Shown one piece after another: positions 22,534 through 41,648 of a DNA stretch of 41,648 bases. The position numbers were made by a program, and so were the translations under genes. The notes beneath the pieces were generated by a model, which made no database searches, was not told the origin of the DNA, and saw nothing but the letters and a program-made list of their open reading frames with translations. The stretch comes from a virus (Duplodnaviria; Heunggongvirae; Uroviricota; Caudoviricetes): the IMG/VR virus record IMGVR_UViG_2609459832_000005; one strand, given 5' to 3'. The stretch's first letter is position 1; every line of letters starts with the position of its first letter.

Positions 22534-22761
22534 TTACTGGCAGCGTCTGAATTTATTCCCGTACCCGCCGTTATCCTTCGCCAGACCCGCCAGAACTAAC
22601 TGAGTCAGTATTAACTGGCACCGGGCTTCGCTTACTCCGGTAGTTCTCGTCATCATGCGTGGCGTTACCCACTTGTCAGCAGGTAAGAAATGAAGGACTG
22701 CGGCGGCGGTTTCTGTCATATCTTGCTGTTTTAGCATGTCTTTTTCCCTTCTGGTTAACAT
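22534..22761 (-). CDS. Hypothetical small protein (possible winged-helix)
   Basis: 75-aa ORF in the late-operon orientation upstream of the methyltransferase; no recognised motif. Confidence 0.3.
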   Translation of the reverse strand: MLTRREKDMLKQQDMTETAAAVLHFLPADKWVTPRMMTRTTGVSEARCQLILTQLVLAGLAKDNGGYGNKFRRCQ

Positions 22762-22859: not shown

Positions 22860-22884
22860 AAAAAAACCGCTCGACGGCGGGTTT
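22860..22884 (-). terminator. Candidate intrinsic terminator (tR'-like) on the late strand
   Basis: Minus-strand short GC stem CCGCC..(loop)..GGCGG region (plus 22867-22880) followed by 7 U (plus A-run 22860-22866). Confidence 0.4.
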
Positions 22885-23037
22885 AAGCTGTGTGGCGAAG
22901 TAACCACTCTTAACACAGTAAACGAGAAAATGCGGACCGCGTAAGTTTTTTTTGATAGATTATGCATATGCAACGAACCCAGGATCATTAACAAATCACA
23001 ACCCATTGATTCAAAAGGATAATAAAGGGTAATTTTA

Positions 23038-23970
23038 ATGACTACGACAGCCACTTCCGCGCCACTAACTAAACAAAAAAAAATGCGTATCGGTTTCTTC
23101 CAAAGCTCCTCAGGAACGAAGTCAACTACATCAAATGCACAACTTGCATTTGACAACATGTATACAACCATTGTTACACCTTCGCAAAATTCTTATACCG
23201 CTGAGTTTGATAAGAAAAAATTAAAGATTGTATTCTTAGAAAAAGACGCACAGGCGGAGTTCTATTTTGGTTATCTATCATGCTCTCGTGATGGTTTCCA
23301 CTTACCTTATATTGGTGATGAAAATTGGGATGAGCACAATATTCCGTTAGATGATAAAAAATATATAGTCGAACGCACTTATTTTATTTACTACTATAAG
23401 AAAGACATTCTTGTTTTATCTCAAAATCATTTAGGACCTAAAGTTTCCGATTTAGCATTTCTTTTATTCAATTTTTCTGAAGAAAACAAACCTGTAGCGT
23501 TTGAGGCAATTTGGAAAAAAGAAAGTGTAAAAGAACTACTTGAAACAGGAAGCACTTTACGTAGCTGTGAAATTACACTCGCCGCTCCACGTAATTTTAG
23601 CGCAACGGATTATGACCTTTCGAATTCATTTTCCAAAAGTATGATTGAAATGATGGCTGGGATGGGCGGTTCGCATTTAAAACTATCACTTAGAGGTAGA
23701 GCATCGCAACGTAAATTAATCCGTGGTTATCTCAGTGATGAAGTAAAAAGTGGAATAAAGGAATTAATAGAAAAAGTTCCTCACTTATTACGTAAAGCTA
23801 ATGTCACTGAACCTAAAAATACTCATTCAAGGAGTCTTCTCAATCAAGTTCTGATCAGTGAAAAAAACATTAACACAAAAGATGGCTACGCAAAAGAAAC
23901 AGATGTGCGTACTGCCTTGATCAGTGCTAAAATTGAACATGGTCAGTATTTAAAGCAATATGAAATCTGA
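23038..23970 (+). CDS. AT-rich cargo protein A, 310 aa, soluble; candidate sensor component of a two-gene exclusion/defence cassette
   Basis: Long ORF on the strand opposite to all surrounding phage genes; markedly lower GC than flanks; no NTPase or nuclease motif recognised; weak local resemblance (LGPKVSDLAFLLF) to a lambda RexA segment as I recall it. Confidence 0.6.
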   Translation: MTTTATSAPLTKQKKMRIGFFQSSSGTKSTTSNAQLAFDNMYTTIVTPSQNSYTAEFDKKKLKIVFLEKDAQAEFYFGYLSCSRDGFHLPYIGDENWDEHNIPLDDKKYIVERTYFIYYYKKDILVLSQNHLGPKVSDLAFLLFNFSEENKPVAFEAIWKKESVKELLETGSTLRSCEITLAAPRNFSATDYDLSNSFSKSMIEMMAGMGGSHLKLSLRGRASQRKLIRGYLSDEVKSGIKELIEKVPHLLRKANVTEPKNTHSRSLLNQVLISEKNINTKDGYAKETDVRTALISAKIEHGQYLKQYEI

Positions 23971-23984
23971 TCTTATTTTTAAGG

Positions 23985-24437
23985 ATGATGATTATGCTTA
24001 TTAAAGTTTTAATTAACATAGTTATCAGTGGGCTGTTAGCTTGGGTGCTTGGGAAATACCTAGCGCCTATGGCTCACTCTGATATCTTAAGTACAGCCGG
24101 AGTGTTATCTACGGTGGCAGGCATTTTGTTTGGTTTTGTATTGGCCGCTATTTCCATCTTCAGTTCTGCAAGTTCAAGTACTGATGGAATTATTTTTGCT
24201 TTAAAACAAAACAAGATTTTACCTAAAATTATTCATAACCTGTTATCTACGGGAGTTACCTTAATATTAGCATGTATTTTCCCGCTGATAGCAATGTTTA
24301 TAAATGAAAAAATCACCATTACCTCTGTAAGACTTGATTTCGCCCTAACCTTATATGGTTTCTCGACCCTGATCGTATCAATAGTTTCATTTGCAAGTAC
24401 CTGGAGGAAAATAAACTGGATATTACCCCACATATAA
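23985..24437 (+). CDS. AT-rich cargo protein B, 150-aa integral membrane protein (about 4 TM helices); candidate membrane effector
   Basis: Four hydrophobic stretches (VLINIVISGLLAWVLG; VLSTVAGILFGFVLAAISIF; LLSTGVTLILACIFPLIAMF; LTLYGFSTLIVSIVSFAS); 14 bp downstream of protein A, co-oriented; size and topology like lambda RexB. Confidence 0.65.
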   Translation: MMIMLIKVLINIVISGLLAWVLGKYLAPMAHSDILSTAGVLSTVAGILFGFVLAAISIFSSASSSTDGIIFALKQNKILPKIIHNLLSTGVTLILACIFPLIAMFINEKITITSVRLDFALTLYGFSTLIVSIVSFASTWRKINWILPHI

Positions 24438-24440
24438 TAT

Positions 24441-24466
24441 TAAGCAGGTGCAAGCACACCTGCTTA
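24441..24466. terminator. Hairpin between convergent cassette and Q genes
   Basis: Perfect 9-bp stem AAGCAGGTG / CACCTGCTT with 6-nt loop; no clear U-tract on either strand, so function as terminator is inferred from position only. Confidence 0.35.
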
Positions 24467-24480
24467 TCCAAACCAAGATA

Positions 24481-24843
24481 TTAATCCATATCTAAGCTAA
24501 CATTTAGAATAGCTAGACAACCTTCTATAAATCCCTCAGCCATCTGTATCTCAATGCGTATTATTTTCTCATCCTTTTTACGAGCTTTAGCGAGCTTTCT
24601 TTTAGAGATACCGTATAGGTAATGGGCAACAAGAAGCGAGTGTTCTTCAGGTCTTTTTTGCTTTAGACGAGCAAGACAACCTTCAATAATTAATGCATCA
24701 CTATCTGAACAAGCCTGACGTGTTTTGCTTGTATAGGGAAGAAGCCCTTTAAACCCAGCAGCTATAGGCGAATAGTCTACCCCAGAACTATCACTCGCCG
24801 CCCATGCACCCCAACGATCCAGAACCATCTGAATATCACGCAT
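24481..24843 (-). CDS. Late-gene antiterminator Q (small Q family, QuuD-like)
   Basis: Likely start MRDIQMVLDRWGAWAA.. (120 aa), which matches my recollection of E. coli QuuD; Cys-containing region SDSDALIIEGCLARLK; last gene of the early-right cluster. Confidence 0.75.
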   Translation of the reverse strand: MRDIQMVLDRWGAWAASDSSGVDYSPIAAGFKGLLPYTSKTRQACSDSDALIIEGCLARLKQKRPEEHSLLVAHYLYGISKRKLAKARKKDEKIIRIEIQMAEGFIEGCLAILNVSLDMD

Positions 24844-24860
24844 CAACTTTCTCCACAAAA

Positions 24861-28929: not shown

Positions 28930-29758
28930 GACGATGCCCTCCGCTGATATTCAGGAGACGGTGAATATGAAAATTAGCCTTATCCGCCAGACGAATACGT
29001 TCAGCTTGCAAGTTAAGAAGGGTTTCTACCAGAACCTGATGTGCCTGCGGATCCGAAAGAGTTACCTTGCGCAGAGCACGTAGTGCAGTTGTTACATAAC
29101 TGAGTTTATGTAAGTCTTCATCATTCAGACGAGTGAGGGCTGGGACAGTAGCCATGATGGCAGCCTCCTTGATCGGTGAAATACTTCCACCACCGGAAAC
29201 GCCAATTTCGCTGGTGGTGAACTGAACGGGGTTGGCGTAACCGGTGATCAAGGAAACCGGCGCATCTTTCGATGCCCCCGCCCAGCCCACCATAACTTTG
29301 ATGTGAGCAAATGCGGACGATAAAAAAGACGCTGGCGCGTCATATATCGCCTTGATCAATTCCAGGACGCCAATCCCGGCACCCGCTTTATAAGGTGCCT
29401 GAACAGTGTAACGTCCCGGAATGGCAGAATCAATGTGCTGGTGGTCCTTCACACTCAACAAAATCACGCCTGAATTTCCACAAAGGACTAAAGCACTCAT
29501 GCGGGTAGTCTTTGCGAAGATAGATAACGCGCTGTGTTTCTGGCTCCCAACGAATAACATGAACATAAAGTCCTCTTCCGTCACGAAACCAGCGGTTAAG
29601 TTCCTGCACAACTCGCCCCCCACAGTCAGGTAAAGTTCTCTGTGGTTACTTACAGCCAGGTGATTTGGTAATCTGCATTCATGCCGTAACAACAGGTGTT
29701 CAGCGACGCTGACCACCAGCTGTTGCGACAAACGGTTATTTGCCGTTAAACTGTTCAT
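28922..29758 (-). CDS. Hypothetical protein (replication-region gene of unknown function)
   Basis: 278-aa ORF between the CII-like gene and the O-like gene; no Walker motif; function not recognisable. Confidence 0.45.
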   Translation of the reverse strand: MNSLTANNRLSQQLVVSVAEHLLLRHECRLPNHLAVSNHRELYLTVGGELCRNLTAGFVTEEDFMFMLFVGSQKHSALSIFAKTTRMSALVLCGNSGVILLSVKDHQHIDSAIPGRYTVQAPYKAGAGIGVLELIKAIYDAPASFLSSAFAHIKVMVGWAGASKDAPVSLITGYANPVQFTTSEIGVSGGGSISPIKEAAIMATVPALTRLNDEDLHKLSYVTTALRALRKVTLSDPQAHQVLVETLLNLQAERIRLADKANFHIHRLLNISGGHRHA

Positions 29759-34530: not shown

Positions 34531-34749
34531 GTGGAGAAACATATGCTGAACCTCGATTGTGTTCCTATCTCAACTTATTGCAAAGAAACTGGCGAAACTC
34601 CTGAAGCAATAAACAAACGTGTACAGCGCGGTGTTTGGCGTGAAGGTGTTCAGGTTTTAAAGGTTGAAGGCGTTAAGGAGAGGTGGATTGATCTTAGTGA
34701 GGTTGCAAAATGGGCCAGACAAAACTGCTCAAACTACCGCGCGGCGTAA
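34531..34749 (+). CDS. Excisionase-like small DNA-binding protein
   Basis: 72-aa ORF immediately upstream of and overlapping the integrase gene; probable winged-helix region (INKRVQRGVWREGVQVLKVEG). Confidence 0.5.
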   Translation: MEKHMLNLDCVPISTYCKETGETPEAINKRVQRGVWREGVQVLKVEGVKERWIDLSEVAKWARQNCSNYRAA

Positions 34750-35879
34750 CAATCAGAAAACACCGTCAGGGAGAAACGATCAATATAACTTTCACCTACA
34801 AAGGAGTTAAATGTCGTGAGCCACTTTCCAATCTGGAAGTAACACCAAAGAACATTAAATACGCCGAGCGTACACTCGGCGAAATTCATAATAAGATCGA
34901 AAGGGGAACATTCATTTATGCGGAATATTTTCCCCGTTCTGCTCGTTTGAAAATTTTTGGTAATGCTGCTGCAGGCAAAACGGTAAAAATGTACCTGGAC
35001 GAATACCTTGAAATCTGCGAAACGAGAAAACTTTCACCATCTACGATTGGTGGTTATAAAAAATGCCGTAGTGCGTTAGCCTCACTCCACATTTGCCCTG
35101 CAAGTGAATTAACACCAGCAATCCTGAAAGCGTGGATTCAAAGCCAGAAAACGACCTTAAAAACAATTCGCAACCAGTTATCTTTCCTGCGGTCAGCACT
35201 TGATGAAGCCGTAACCGATGGGGTACTTCAAATTAACCCCGTATCGTTGGTAACTGCTTCGCGCTACCAAAGTGATAAGTCAGAAGCAGAAAGCAGCTAC
35301 ATGGTTGATCCGCTATCACCAGCAGAAGTTGATGCATTACTAGCAGCAGCCGGAAACAAACAATGGGAGAATCTGTTCCGGTTCGCTATACATACAGGCC
35401 TGCGTAGTTCTGAATTATGTGCCCTTCGATGGCGTGATATCGACTTTGTTGGAAAAACTGCCCATGTCCAGAGCGCAAGTGTTGTCGGTGTTATCAAAGG
35501 AACAAAGACAAAAGCCGGTACTCGTAAAGTCGAACTGACAGAAGATGCAATGTTGGCGCTGATAAATCAGAAGCCATTTACATTCATGAAGGATGCTACA
35601 GTCTTTGAAGATCCAAAGACCAATAAGCCTTGGGCAAGTGCTGATGCAATTAGAAAAAAAGCATGGGTGCCAACATTGCGGAAAGCAGGTATTCGTTACA
35701 GAAACCCATATCAAACCAGACATACATTCGCCACCAGCCATATCAGCCGGGGAGCAAACCTGTTTTGGCTTGCGGTTCAAATGGGTCATAAAGGACCAGA
35801 GATGTTATTTAGACATTATGGCTCATACCTCAAAGAATATGATGGAAATACATCTTTAAATAGAAAAAATAGATATTAG
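34710..35879 (+). CDS. Lambda-type tyrosine integrase
   Basis: 389 aa; N-terminal arm-binding-type region (LPRGVTIRKHRQGETINITFTYKGVKCRE), C-terminal catalytic region with R..H..R..Y pattern (RHTFATSHI.. LFRHYGSYL); oriented toward the attachment-site copy at 37357. Confidence 0.85.
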   Translation: MGQTKLLKLPRGVTIRKHRQGETINITFTYKGVKCREPLSNLEVTPKNIKYAERTLGEIHNKIERGTFIYAEYFPRSARLKIFGNAAAGKTVKMYLDEYLEICETRKLSPSTIGGYKKCRSALASLHICPASELTPAILKAWIQSQKTTLKTIRNQLSFLRSALDEAVTDGVLQINPVSLVTASRYQSDKSEAESSYMVDPLSPAEVDALLAAAGNKQWENLFRFAIHTGLRSSELCALRWRDIDFVGKTAHVQSASVVGVIKGTKTKAGTRKVELTEDAMLALINQKPFTFMKDATVFEDPKTNKPWASADAIRKKAWVPTLRKAGIRYRNPYQTRHTFATSHISRGANLFWLAVQMGHKGPEMLFRHYGSYLKEYDGNTSLNRKNRY

Positions 35880-35911: not shown

Positions 35912-36601
35912 TCATATCAATGTATGTTGAATAGAATAATTTTCAACACCATAATGAGATGCTAATTTTGATAAAAAACCATCCTTTGAAGATAAAACAT
36001 CATCTAACATATTTCGTCTTACTAAAGAGACAAAAAGTGCAGCTGCTCTGGCTTGGCAATTAATAGATTTCGCTGGATTAAATTCAATATCAGTAAACCC
36101 ATCAAAATTTAATAGATGGAGTGCTAGATTTTTGTTTTGATTGAGCGCACTCAAATATAACCAATCATAAAAAGCAGTCCTGGGGACAATGGGCCATATT
36201 GTATTATAAAATTTGAAGTTAACTAATCCCCCAGATTCCTTTAATCTCATATCTTTTTTTGCTTCTATCGAGCTTTTATCTAAGATATCGACATATGGTC
36301 CTCCCATTTCAAATACTTTACTTGCTTGAAATGCAGATTCAACTGTAAACTCTTTCCCAAGTCTTTTCGTCTTTATTCTTAGATTAAATGCACTAAGTGC
36401 TACCCCCAGCGCATCTTCGGATTTACTAGAAATTTCCAACAAAGAGTTCAATCCCTGCTCATTCGCTGCTGTATGTAACGCCCTGATCGATTTTTGCTTT
36501 TGCGTTTTAGACATACCAGGAGCCCAAGGAAAATCCACATCCTTCGTGATCGATAGTAAGTTCCCTGCGTTTGTAGGGACGAAAACAGGTCTAACAGCCA
36601 T
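35912..36601 (-). CDS. Uncharacterised 229-aa partner of the DarT-like gene (candidate antitoxin/immunity protein)
   Basis: Start codon 3 nt after the DarT-like stop with AGGA SD (translational coupling); AT-rich; no macrodomain or NADAR signature recognised. Confidence 0.6.
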   Translation of the reverse strand: MAVRPVFVPTNAGNLLSITKDVDFPWAPGMSKTQKQKSIRALHTAANEQGLNSLLEISSKSEDALGVALSAFNLRIKTKRLGKEFTVESAFQASKVFEMGGPYVDILDKSSIEAKKDMRLKESGGLVNFKFYNTIWPIVPRTAFYDWLYLSALNQNKNLALHLLNFDGFTDIEFNPAKSINCQARAAALFVSLVRRNMLDDVLSSKDGFLSKLASHYGVENYSIQHTLI

Positions 36602-36604
36602 AAC

Positions 36605-37228
36605 TTATCCTAAATAATAATGCCTCTGAGAATAAAGTGTTCTAGCATTAAGATTATCATAATATCTCTGTATTGTCTGTGGATATAATCTCTTGAAATG
36701 TTCAGCAGATTCTTTGTTAGGGTGAAAAGTGCTTATAATATATGAGGGAGGAATTTTTTCAAATACCAGTATTTCAGCTTGAACATCCGTCGTATACTCA
36801 CTTGGAAGGTTTACATCTCTCTGAATCCCAAAAACATTCTCTGAAAACAAAGCACTAAATGCCTCAGCTCCTTTCATCAAATCAAGATTTATAAAACGAA
36901 CGTTATTCGAAGCTGCGTTGGTAGGATAAAAAGCGCAATCCTTAGCCCAAAGAACAGATGGATTGATTTCTAATATAACCCAGTCCCCAGGCTTTAAACA
37001 TCTATATTTATAAAACATTTTTGCATTAGGGTAACTTACGGACAAACAAATCGCATCTGGATGACCATCAATCCTTTCTTCATCATTACAATTATATTCA
37101 TTATTTTCATTATCAAGTTCTGAACGAGACATAAGGCCATTATCTAAAATGGAAGTTAGATTATCGCTATGTGTAAAATGAAACAAGCTACGAATATTAC
37201 GTTGCTGAATTATTTCCTGTATTGTCAT
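36605..37228 (-). CDS. DarT-like ADP-ribosyltransferase (DUF4433 family) candidate toxin
   Basis: 207 aa; N-terminal signature FHFTHSDNLTSILDNGL (DarT hallmark [YF]H.TH.DNL..IL..G.L) and C-terminal QAEILVF resembling the catalytic-Glu motif (AEFLV) of DarT, both as I recall them. Confidence 0.6.
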   Translation of the reverse strand: MTIQEIIQQRNIRSLFHFTHSDNLTSILDNGLMSRSELDNENNEYNCNDEERIDGHPDAICLSVSYPNAKMFYKYRCLKPGDWVILEINPSVLWAKDCAFYPTNAASNNVRFINLDLMKGAEAFSALFSENVFGIQRDVNLPSEYTTDVQAEILVFEKIPPSYIISTFHPNKESAEHFKRLYPQTIQRYYDNLNARTLYSQRHYYLG

Positions 37229-37591: not shown

Positions 37592-38833
37592 ATGGCAAGA
37601 CAAACCAAACCTCTATCCGTTAAAGAAATAGAATCAGCCAAACCCAAGGAGGCGGACTACGTTCTCTATGATGGCGATGGCCTTGAGCTACTCATTAAAT
37701 CCAGCGGGAGTAAAATCTGGCAGTTTCGCTACATTCGCCCTGTCACCAAGAAACGAGCAAAGAAGAGCATAGGCTCCTACCCGTCAGTTACCCTTGCCGA
37801 TGCCAGAAACTACCGTGCAGAGTCCCGCTCACTACTGGCTAAACAGATCGATCCGCAGGAACATCAGCAAGAACAATTGCGCAGTTCGCTGGAAGCCAAA
37901 ACCAACACTTTCCAACTCGTAGCTGAACGTTGGTGGAATGTGAAGAAAGCCAGTGTGACAGAGGACTATGCGGAAGATATCTGGCGCTCTCTTGAAAGAG
38001 ACGTCTTTCCTGCGATTGGCGACGTTAGCGTTACAGATATTAAAGCTCATACACTGGTTCAGGCCGTACAACCGGTTCAGGCCAGAGGAGCACTGGAAAC
38101 TGTTCGTCGCCTGTGCCAACGTATTAATGAGGTCATGATCTATGCCCAGAACACAGGGCTGATTGATGCTGTTCCCAGCGTTAATATCGGTAAAGCCTTC
38201 GAGAAGCCTCAGAAAAAGAACATGCCCAGCATTCGACCGGATCAGCTACCTCAGTTAATGCAGACGATGCGAACAGCCAGCATTAGCCTTTCCACACGCT
38301 GCCTGTTCATGTGGCAACTTCTTACTATTACCCGCCCTGCCGAAGCGGCTGAAGCTCTCTGGGAAGAGGTAGACATAGAAGCGCGAGAGTGGAAGATTCC
38401 TGCAGCACGCATGAAAATGAACCGCGACCATACTGTTCCATTGTCAGATGAAGCAATTGCGATACTAGAGATGATGAAGCCGTTAAGTGGAAATCGAGAA
38501 TTTATCTTTCCCAGCCGCATCAAGCCAAACCAGCCGATGAACAGTCAGACCGTAAACGCATCGCTAAAACGCGCAGGTTTTGGTGGGGTGCTCGTTTCAC
38601 ACGGCCTGCGATCTATCGCCAGTACAGCCCTTAATGAGCAGGGATTTCCACCTGATGTTATTGAGGCTGCACTTGCTCATGTGGATAAGAATGAGGTTCG
38701 TCGTGCGTATAACCGTAGTGATTATCTTGAGCAGCGACGGCCTATGATGCAGTGGTGGGCTGATTTTGTGATGGCTGCAGATCACGGTAGTATGATTGAA
38801 GGAGGGATAAAGGCAATGCGGTTAGTTGGATGA
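37592..38833 (+). CDS. intA: P4-family tyrosine integrase (IntA-like, ssrA-associated)
   Basis: 413 aa; N-terminal KPLSVKEIESAKPKEADYVLYDGDGLELLIKSSGSKIWQFRY typical of P4-type integrases; C-terminal R..H..R..Y catalytic pattern; immediately downstream of the ssrA 3' end copy as in E. coli CP4-57. Confidence 0.9.
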   Translation: MARQTKPLSVKEIESAKPKEADYVLYDGDGLELLIKSSGSKIWQFRYIRPVTKKRAKKSIGSYPSVTLADARNYRAESRSLLAKQIDPQEHQQEQLRSSLEAKTNTFQLVAERWWNVKKASVTEDYAEDIWRSLERDVFPAIGDVSVTDIKAHTLVQAVQPVQARGALETVRRLCQRINEVMIYAQNTGLIDAVPSVNIGKAFEKPQKKNMPSIRPDQLPQLMQTMRTASISLSTRCLFMWQLLTITRPAEAAEALWEEVDIEAREWKIPAARMKMNRDHTVPLSDEAIAILEMMKPLSGNREFIFPSRIKPNQPMNSQTVNASLKRAGFGGVLVSHGLRSIASTALNEQGFPPDVIEAALAHVDKNEVRRAYNRSDYLEQRRPMMQWWADFVMAADHGSMIEGGIKAMRLVG

Positions 38834-38971: not shown

Positions 38972-41259
38972 CTATTTTAAATCAGCCTTTGCGGCTCGAA
39001 TATCTGCGTTTTTTGCTGAGTATTCCCATTCGTCAGCGATTCTAAATAGCATTGCAGAAGTACGGACGCAGTGGGGCATTGAATTTGCCCATTCTCGGTA
39101 CTGCTCAGCTAATATCCTTTCTTGGTTTCCACCTTCGTAACGCATACGAGCAAATACCCCCCTTTTATTGTACCTACCAATTTGTATACCTTGCTCTAAC
39201 TCATCAGAAGATAATATTTCAATGATGTGCCGAATTGCTTCATGTGGCCAGGAATTATCTACTGAGCTATTAGGGGCATGTGCCAGAATTTTTCCTATTA
39301 CATGATCAGTGATTTCTTGGCGATGATGCAATTTTGCTAAATGGCGTACATTCTCACACCAATCTTCAAGTTTATCTTGATCAATTTCATTGTCTATCTG
39401 CCCTGGTAGTATTCGTAATTTTTCAAGTAATCTGTATATAGAAGTAGCTCTTTTAACTTCCAACTCCGATGGTTCTGTTTGTTCATCTTCGTCACTACGA
39501 TATACAATACATATTGCTTCTATAAAAACCTCTGGCTTTTTCATCATTAGACGATGCAGGATAAGTGGCTCATCGCTATCCGGAAAACAAGGCAAGTAGG
39601 TCATTTCTTTAAATGCCAAATCTGTTTCAGAAACATCGTTACGTTGTTTGAGTTCATCAAAAACTTTTTTTACATAGTACGATAGCATTGTATCAAATTG
39701 GATATCCTGGCTATTTATTTCTTTAACGACTATATCTAGAAGATATAAAAGTGTTGTAGATGGAATCTCAGAAAGGCGTTGATTTGCTGATATAATAGCA
39801 GCAAGACCCCGGCCCCTTTCTATATATTTATCCATAAGAACAAATAAATCCGAAGTTTTACCCATCATTGCAATGGGTTGTTTTTGCAACCAATATTTTT
39901 CGTTGATGTTATCTTCAAACCCTTCAATAATGCTCCATATCTCTTGTGAGTCTCTTAACGATGCTAAGATTTTCCCAGCCCTATCAGGGGTAATTTTAAA
40001 CTGTTTAAAATACACTTTTATTTTATTAAGCCATTCAGCACCAAAGCATTCAACACCATATTGCATTAACAACCCACAAACTTCATCAATATTTTTTTTG
40101 TTGTTAATAAGCATTACAAACAAATCATTTAATTTTTCTTCATCCAACGAGAGTGCTGATATATGCCTTGCTGCAATAAAAACATTATTAACTTGTTGAA
40201 AAAGGTCTTTCACCCCAGACAAACCTAAAGTAAAGTATATTTCCCTAAGTTTTTCACTTCGCATTTCTTCGACAGAAGAAAAAATTCCGCCAGCATTTTC
40301 AATTGACTCTTCAATATCAGAATCCCAATCATTGAAAATCCATAAACTGGCTCTAACCATGTCAATTGGTTTATAATTATCAAGTATTTTCGCTATTTTT
40401 TCCATAGACTCAAATTTAAATGCCCAGTTCGCATCTGAATATTTTTTATGGCGAGAATACTCATGACGCAAAGCCTCCCATACGATGAACTGATCCTCTT
40501 CAGTTTGTTGAGAAAGGCAAAGTTCAAGATGAGAAAGTGTTTCATCTATTGCATTCTCAGGGAATGAGCTTAAATGAGAGATTAGGATTTCCCATCTTGT
40601 TAGGAGTATACCTGCAAGTTTAATTGCTTCTTGGATAATAAAGATTTGCCCCTCCCAAACAACGCCCCACGTTAGTTTTTCTACATCTTTATCCGACTCT
40701 CTGAACTTCATTTTTTGGTTTTGATCAGAGGTATCATGGGAGCGAGGAAGGAGATTTTGTAACAAACTCCACCCAATACTAGGAACAATAGTGATAATTT
40801 TTTTTATAATTGCATTTCTAACTTTTACTGGTGCCCATGTATTAGGAGACCATGCCAGAAAAATGGTTCTTAAACTATTAAGAGGGCGATCTGAGTAAGT
40901 TCCTCCGGGATCTATTACAGCGAGTTTTGCAAGACAGATTGCAGCGCGTAATAGATATGTTTGTTCCCAAGCCAAGGCTTCCAATGCCCATTTTAATCCA
41001 TGATAATGACTTCGAGGAGTTAACAGCCCTTTATCTTCATTGAATATTGGAGCAATCATTTCCCCATTGCCCTTAAGCAATTGCTCAAGGGCATCAAGGA
41101 AAGGGCCAGGGGCAGCTTCTGCCAGCAGCGGAAGTTGATCTCGCAAACTAACAAATAGTCGATGGTCGTTAGCAAGTCCCGGAATACTCTGAACTATTTT
41201 GTTAACAAAATCTTGGGGTGTCATACCAGTAACCCGGAATTCGGCCTGTTCATGTAATA
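38972..41259 (-). CDS. Large AT-rich orphan protein (>=750 aa, helical-repeat-like), 5' end abutting IS3
   Basis: 767-aa track ORF whose first ~5 codons are read from the IS3 terminal repeat; first native ATG at 41222-41224 (MTPQDFVNKIV..) lies 35 bp from the IS3 end; no P-loop or nuclease motif recognised. Confidence 0.6.
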
Positions 41260-41648
41260 TGATCTTACCCAGCAATAGTGGACACGCGGCTAAGTGAGTA
41301 AACTCTCAGTCAGAGGTGACTCACATGACAAAAACAGTATCAACCAGTAAAAAACCCCGTAAACAGCATTCGCCTGAATTTCGCAGTGAAGCCCTGAAGC
41401 TTGCTGAACGCATCGGTGTTACTGCCGCAGCCCGTGAACTCAGCCTGTATGAATCACAGCTCTACAACTGGCGCAGTAAACAGCAAAATCAGCAGACGTC
41501 TTCTGAACGTGAACTGGAGATGTCTACCGAGATTGCACGTCTCAAACGCCAGCTGGCAGAACGGGATGAAGAGCTGGCTATCCTCCAAAAGGCCGCGACA
41601 TACTTCGCGAAGCGCCTGAAATGAAGTATGTCTTTATTGAAAAACATC
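41260..41648 (+). mobile_element. IS3 (left end, partial; continues beyond the window)
   Basis: Terminal sequence TGATCTTACCCAGCAATAGTGGACACGCGG.. followed by the IS3 orfA matches my recollection of IS3; orfB start (ATGAAGTATGTC..) overlaps the orfA stop at 41633. Confidence 0.8.
41316..41624 (+). CDS. IS3 transposase OrfA (HTH subunit)
   Basis: 102-aa ORF (track) with HTH and leucine-zipper-like C-terminus (EIARLKRQLAERDEELAILQKA), typical IS3-family OrfA. Confidence 0.85.
   Translation: MTHMTKTVSTSKKPRKQHSPEFRSEALKLAERIGVTAAARELSLYESQLYNWRSKQQNQQTSSERELEMSTEIARLKRQLAERDEELAILQKAATYFAKRLK

Follow-up and report, generated by a model that had tools for sequence, protein, structure and literature searches.

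The stretch of DNA analysed here, 41,648 nucleotides (nt) of a virus of the Caudoviricetes (IMG/VR record IMGVR_UViG_2609459832_000005; "the window" denotes this whole stretch), carries an AT-rich insert of two plus-strand genes within a minus-strand lambdoid late region, between the antiterminator gene Q and a conserved late-leader block. A first-pass annotation, made by a model from the letters without database searches, had read the two genes as a soluble sensor and a membrane effector of the abortive-infection kind, in the manner of lambda RexA/RexB, and it is this pair and its relation to the Rex proteins that we examine. The insert and its immediate surroundings comprise:

22955-23037, plus strand: cassette-specific upstream region; aligned loci diverge from about 22955 on
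22995-23023, plus strand: weak sigma-70-like match, 9 of 12 consensus positions in a promoter scan
23025-23029, plus strand: ribosome-binding site AAGGG of ORF (open reading frame) A, from sequence inspection
23038-23970, plus strand: ORF A, 310 amino acids (aa), soluble, DUF6731 family; proposed sensor/DNA-binding component
23981-23985, plus strand: ribosome-binding site AAGGA of ORF B, 8 nt ahead of ATG 23994, from sequence inspection
23994-24437, plus strand: ORF B, 147 aa, predicted four-helix inner-membrane protein; proposed RexB-like effector
24441-24466, no strand assigned: stable hairpin separating the convergent ORF B and Q

All larger ORFs between 20088 and 27881 lie on the minus strand, as had been claimed, and ORF A has exactly the limits and length first given for it. 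ORF B is present too, but its start had been set too early (23985-24437, 150 aa): nearly all of the 97 homologs found in a database search are 147-149 aa long and RefSeq annotates a length of 147 aa in a near-identical prophage, so that the start is likely ATG 23994 and the intergenic gap 23 nt rather than 14 bp. The G+C content (GC) of the insert is 0.354, whereas its left and right flanks have 0.484 and 0.535 and the window as a whole 0.498; the cassette is therefore as GC-poor as described, although the lowest value in the window, 0.341, belongs to a DarT island at about 35.8 kb. The hairpin was confirmed (-15.5 kcal/mol, z = -4.95 on the plus strand, none of 200 shuffles folding equally well). 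In a terminator scan it is terminator-like on the minus (Q) strand only, its plus strand offering a 3' stem without a U-tract. The A/T-rich promoter-like region proposed upstream is weakly supported: the single plus-strand consensus match, at 22995-23023, would put the transcription start at or beyond the ribosome-binding site.

ORF A is assigned to Pfam DUF6731 (PF20505) with 44 bits against a cut-off of 27, over residues 12-273 of 310; RefSeq names it 'DUF6731 family protein' and it matches phrog_7651, a PHROG without assigned function. NCBIfam returned nothing but a sub-threshold Lart1 match, dismissed as stray, and neither DUF6731 nor the RefSeq accessions are mentioned in the literature searched. 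The protein has no hydrophobic segments, in keeping with the soluble protein it was said to be. In an AlphaFold2 model built from 38 homologs (mean predicted local distance difference test, pLDDT, 81.6), the predicted fold is a seven-stranded outer domain split by a four-stranded middle domain with helices; it reproduces the architecture of lambda RexA (8TWQ), described as a split globular domain plus a dimerisation domain (PMC11077077). A Foldseek search of solved structures with this model placed lambda RexA first (8twq_B, E 2.1e-7, probability 1.0), ahead of RdgC and CENP-N, RexA being the top and only strong match. The fold of the RexA superfamily, an interrupted seven-stranded sheet with a four-stranded insert and 8TWQ as the closest structure, is thus what the model of ORF A displays, at a structure-based identity to RexA (PF15969; its partner RexB is PF15968) of about 10-12%. 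Membership of ORF A in the RdgC family was considered and rejected, since the structural scores are much under those of RexA and RdgC lacks a membrane partner; the kinetochore proteins CENP-L/N (IML3/CHL4) likewise score far below RexA, come without a membrane partner and belong to other biology.

At the level of sequence, the segment LGPKVSDLAFLLF of ORF A had been noted to resemble RexA, and overall similarity had been judged not evident. The first remark stands: with the narrow profile A1, hhalign pairs LGPKVSDLAFLLF with FGPTTSDLTDFLIG of RexA, and this GPxxSDL segment is all that aligns. The second is right for single sequences and narrow profiles but not for a broad one, which aligns over the full length. 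Starting from the ORF A family, an exhaustive hidden Markov model (HMM) search gave 196 clusters at 50% identity, and the 132 full-length ones were aligned as profile A3 (119 of them DUF6731 by Pfam, none RexA). Compared with A5, a profile of five RexA sequences for which rexA genes were picked beside diverged rexB genes, A3 aligned in hhalign with a probability of 78% and E 1.8e-5 over 251 columns, query positions 9-288 to RexA 2-270. This suggests a full-length relationship between the two families, for which we regard the profile match as moderate evidence. A single-sequence phmmer search of the PDB with ORF A returned nothing significant; nor did an hmmsearch of A3 (DUF6731) against the PDB, which missed the 8TWQ sequence, and A1 searched against genome contigs found three loci only. 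We conclude that ORF A is very probably a remote RexA homolog, and that it stands outside the RexA family as Pfam and PADLOC define it, because their models match lambda RexA (positive controls: Pfam E 1e-97, PADLOC E 9e-110) and miss ORF A.

ORF B had been described as a four-transmembrane protein, and so it appears: it contains four hydrophobic segments, placed much as in lambda RexB (144 aa, four segments), and its AlphaFold2 model (pLDDT 81.5) predicts four long helices at residues 2-22, 28-61, 75-102 and 114-143, with a short helix in the central loop. A RexB-like layout, that is about 140-190 residues, four transmembrane helices and a gene directly downstream of a RexA-like one, is therefore found in ORF B at 147 aa, and the same gene arrangement recurs in every homologous locus examined. 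PHROGs gave a sole match, phrog_8552, without assigned function. When the model was searched against the predicted viral structures of BFVD, rank 2 was a 165-aa Sbash protein (probability 0.99, E 0.037, TM 0.43-0.47), which must be gp31 because gene 31 is the sole 165-aa coding sequence in the Sbash record (KP027201). In the gp30/gp31 defence system of Sbash, gp31 has been validated by experiment as the RexB-like membrane component (PMC6426596). We also widened the narrow ORF B profile (A2) with partner proteins from distant DUF6731 loci, giving A6 and then A9, which lowered the hhalign E-value against RexB to 0.016 and then 0.0033; the alignment of the ORF B family with RexB is always colinear and runs through an HxDxL motif, the second transmembrane helix (AG...AA..S/T) and the next loop. 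By BLASTP, the partner protein of Pseudomonas phage AUS531phi matches lambda RexB at E 8e-4, with 33% identity over 42 residues, and the matches of the distant partners are colinear across the first and second transmembrane helices and the following loop, four of these partners outscoring all 200 RexB shuffles. Taken together, the homology of ORF B to RexB is no more than suggestive. A Pfam MotA_ExbB match of ORF B (E 0.13) was judged to be noise, being absent in three other family members. Several proteins of the RexB family (P0313, P0318, P0320) carry the NCBI name 'biopolymer transporter ExbB'.

Two other identities could be imagined for such a pair. ORF B is small, polytopic and encoded 1.7 kb from the holin gene, and might be a holin- or antiholin-like protein that times lysis, with ORF A as its regulator. 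We consider this very unlikely: ORF B lies on the strand opposite to the late operon and has no holin family match in Pfam or PHROGs, the prophage has its own set of holin, lysozyme and Rz, and homologous pairs in other elements are neighbours of cI or of an integrase gene and distant from any lysis genes. The combination of a soluble protein of about 310 aa and a four-transmembrane protein also bears a superficial resemblance to Kiwa, formed by the membrane sensor KwaA and the DUF4868 effector KwaB, which the first-pass annotation had named for comparison. In Kiwa the membrane protein comes first, so the gene order is reversed relative to the window pair; PADLOC, whose models cover both known and candidate defence systems, gave no match at E <= 10, Pfam found no DUF4868, and no Kiwa chain was among the top structural matches in the PDB. 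A Kiwa-like system is thus extremely improbable here.

The two genes co-occur in all loci inspected, from 88% down to about 20% identity. Prophages of Escherichia coli, Yersinia and Pectobacterium, together with the inducible phage cdtI, carry pairs at 47-88% identity in the same place, on the opposite strand, convergent with a Q of the PF06530 type and upstream of the holin or late genes; head and tail modules vary among the prophages that carry such a Q-adjacent pair. Among 5426 complete E. coli genomes, 18, 72 and 25 carry one of three alleles of the pair in this slot, together about 2%. Elsewhere the surroundings differ. A Klebsiella pair lies in a different element, near a primase gene and an Imm_superinfect gene; an integrase gene is the neighbour of the pair in one contig of marine origin and in a Vibrio element, and in a metagenomic contig a 21%-identical DUF6731 protein is followed by an overlapping gene for a 144-aa membrane protein. 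In an Aeromonas hydrophila prophage (L054), a 33%-identity pair (318 and 155 aa) sits immediately 3' of a cI-like repressor gene (HTH_3 plus Peptidase_S24), divergent from cro. Phage AUS531phi (L057) likewise has, directly after the gene of a 'Cro/CI family' repressor, genes for a DUF6731-like protein of 298 aa and for a small membrane protein. The layout in these two is the lambda cI-rexA-rexB arrangement. One DUF6731 homolog, 61% identical to ORF A, is labelled 'portal (connector) protein' in ON470608.1 (30259-31176) and ON470622.1 (15476-16393); this label is almost certainly wrong.

In the window the pair occupies a slot whose limits were set by an alignment of six loci with Q and the late leader in common:

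24481-24858, minus strand: antiterminator Q (Phage_antitermQ, Pfam E 3.7e-52), the right boundary of the insert
22860-22950, minus strand: conserved late-leader block, the left boundary, with hairpin plus T-run elements at 22942-22930 and 22878-22866

On the Q side, conservation starts exactly at the Q stop codon; on the other side it stops at about 22950, beyond a leader block of about 95 bp that is invariant in all six loci, including one (L006) with different downstream late genes. The terminator scan flags terminator-like sites in the block, its counterpart in phage Ayreon is annotated 'terminator', and Rfam holds no family for it. The leader block appears to travel with Q despite the variable cargo between them. 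Neither a consensus scan nor the locus alignment found a Q-dependent late promoter, and either Q acts at a site from which the cargo separates it, or transcription of the late genes runs through the cargo in antisense. The surrounding minus-strand run, from about 20.1 to 27.9 kb, encodes Rz, lysozyme, holin, a DNA methylase and a 75-aa protein, then Q, DUF968, KilA-N, RusA and others. The 75-aa protein (22534-22761, minus strand; 67 aa in RefSeq), first small ORF of the late operon, belongs to phrog_331, without assigned function, and weakly matches phrog_142, a Ren-like exclusion protein (E 0.04).

The slot takes other genes in other E. coli prophages, as the idea of a moron hotspot beside Q had implied. 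In two of them (L021, 2014-3553; L022, 2007-3561), it holds plus-strand genes for a 287-289-aa protein matching PDC-S42, a PADLOC candidate defence family (E 1e-32), and for a small protein of 140-143 aa; a third (L023) has a single plus-strand gene for a 339-aa protein. The gap between Q and the late leader is thus a cargo hotspot that repeatedly carries candidate defence genes. The same observation leaves some room for a moron with another membrane-linked role, such as superinfection exclusion by a block of DNA entry or a benefit to host fitness, in which the RexA fold would have been reused: the Q-to-lysis interval accepts many kinds of cargo, with unrelated proteins in the slot elsewhere, the neighbour of the Klebsiella pair belongs to the Imm_superinfect family, and the fold common to RexA, RdgC and CENP proteins serves several DNA-related functions (PMC11077077). 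We think such a role quite unlikely for the window pair.

The position beside Q also bears on what we see as the main rival explanation, namely that the pair serves the prophage's own control of the lysogeny-lytic decision or of its late genes, ORF B being its partner in the membrane, much as RexB is reported to stabilise lambda functions. In Enterobacterales the cassettes always accompany a PF06530-type Q, and the 3' half of Q is GC-poor as well (24481-24670, GC 0.368, against 0.457 for the 5' half), a hint at a shared module; Q and the slot beside it may come from one foreign source or be exchanged together by recombination. Lambda RexA, moreover, promotes the lytic switch independently of RexB (PMC11077077). 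But Q is not always present: the pair adjoins cI in Aeromonas and AUS531phi and an integrase gene in the marine contig and in Vibrio, and it occurs in the primase-bearing Klebsiella element. Q remains unchanged when the slot cargo is swapped for unrelated genes, and the presence of unrelated alternative cargo beside the same Q means that Q can work without the cassette. The strict link to a membrane protein, finally, fits an effector role better. On balance a role in the prophage's own life cycle is rather unlikely.

We therefore favour the view that the cassette is probably a divergent two-component abortive-infection module of the RexAB type, carried as a moron by a lambdoid prophage, because: (i) ORF A has a predicted RexA fold, (ii) ORF B is a predicted four-helix protein, (iii) the two genes are tightly coupled, (iv) distant members occupy a rexAB-like position and (v) the slot is rich in candidate defence genes. 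The initial proposal of a sensor and a membrane effector of the RexA/RexB kind is borne out to the extent that a remote RexA homolog is followed by a RexB-sized four-helix protein. By analogy with lambda RexAB, Sbash gp30/gp31 and the RexABpp system of Pseudomonas putida (PMC11077077, PMC6426596, PMC12894663), ORF A would be a cytoplasmic dimeric sensor that binds DNA non-specifically. Upon infection by another phage it would activate ORF B, oligomers of which may form an inner-membrane channel or pore; the membrane potential would then collapse, or the membrane become leaky, ATP would drop, and growth of the phage in the infected cell would be halted ahead of progeny release. The cassette is presumably expressed in the lysogen from its own promoter, because it faces against the late operon and hairpins insulate it on both sides.

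Several observations weigh against this interpretation. ORF A has no RexA match in Pfam PF15969 (E <= 1) or PADLOC RexA (E <= 10), and ORF B has none to RexB in Pfam PF15968 or PADLOC RexB, models that do find lambda RexB (positive controls: Pfam E 8.5e-92, PADLOC E 8.6e-61). Profile comparison of the ORF B family with RexB gave E 0.13 (narrow A2), 0.016 (A6) and 0.0033 (A9), with probabilities below 10% throughout and a value of 0.1 for the reversed-sequence control, and the window's own ORF B did not score above 200 shuffled controls against RexB. The E-values in BFVD are only 0.02-0.04, and four-helix bundles are easily matched by chance. The pair lies about 6 kb from the cI-like gene (by comparison with L002), outside the immunity operon, and the scan upstream of the cassette gave no convincing promoter, which makes lysogenic expression an assumption. 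Lambda RexA also has an activity apart from exclusion, since it tips the bistable switch to lytic growth without RexB (PMC11077077).

Comparison with characterised systems helps to place the pair. Lambda rexAB is located in the cI operon, whereas the window pair lies between Q and the late leader and is convergent with Q. The P. putida RexABpp system (PP_5643/PP_5644), reported in 2026, was recognised by the criteria that are applied here and defends against phages through RexB-dependent membrane damage (PMC12894663). Its proteins differ in size from those of the window (RexApp 37.5 kDa with a His tag and RexBpp at least 181 residues, whereas ORF A has 310 and ORF B 147); moreover, RexABpp lies near a cI-like repressor gene and is experimentally supported, whereas the window pair is a predicted system. 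Sbash gp30/gp31 and gp44/gp43 of Gordonia phage CarolAnn are two-gene prophage defence systems in which a RexA-like soluble protein and a four-transmembrane partner are proposed to act by membrane depolarisation (PMC6426596, PMC6426606). They share with the window pair this combination of a RexA-like soluble protein and a four-transmembrane partner, and the ORF B model matches that of gp31, but Sbash gp30 is longer (372 aa), their hosts are actinobacteria, and in hhalign neither DUF6731 and gp30 nor ORF B and gp31 proved similar at profile level.

It is tempting to speculate further that DUF6731 proteins and their four-helix partners form a large, hitherto unrecognised sister branch of the Rex superfamily across the phages of Gammaproteobacteria. 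In enterobacterial lambdoids this branch would have left the immunity operon and settled between Q and the late leader. The task of its RexA-like DNA-binding protein might there go beyond triggering a membrane effector: it could act as a sensor or modulator of Q-dependent late transcription, or of replication, be it of incoming lambdoids or of its own prophage, and so link exclusion to the late-gene switch. We give this scenario as a whole a low probability.

Other features of the window deserve mention. Just past the prophage integrase, GC drops to 0.34 in a second AT-rich islet (35912-37228, minus strand, together with 34710-35879 and 37592-38833), which encodes a DarT single-stranded DNA ADP-ribosyltransferase (Pfam E 6.8e-24; PADLOC DarT) and a DarT1-associated NADAR antitoxin (E 1.4e-89); judged by these matches, the islet genes are a predicted DarTG-type defence toxin-antitoxin pair. 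After them comes another integrase gene, and beside it a 767-aa ORF (38972-41275, minus strand) with no Pfam or PADLOC match at E <= 0.001 is possibly further island cargo. In the early region (29210-29398, minus strand), a C4 antisense RNA (RF01695, 82 bits) and an adjacent isrK Hfq-binding small RNA (RF01394, 64 bits) both score above the Rfam gathering score.

To our knowledge, RexAB is the oldest known phage-exclusion system, and its trigger and the activation of RexB by RexA are still unresolved. This is partly because the recognised family is tiny and nearly invariant: our RexB search gave only 23 clusters, at 46-100% identity. While the kind of system proposed here is already known, the window pair is new in that it lies outside the recognised families and ties the uncharacterised DUF6731 to Rex; a location between Q and the late leader is not described for Rex-like genes in the literature searched. 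Linking DUF6731 and its partner to Rex would add at least 196 clusters at 50% identity, and the positions conserved among them could steer mutagenesis, namely the invariant H28 and G43-I-L-F-G-F, K71 and W137 of ORF B and the GPxxSDL motif that ORF A shares with RexA. Such pairs are overlooked by defence finders (PADLOC 2.0 RexA/RexB models), and the gap between Q and the late leader in lambdoid prophages with a PF06530-type Q is a place to look for further defence genes.

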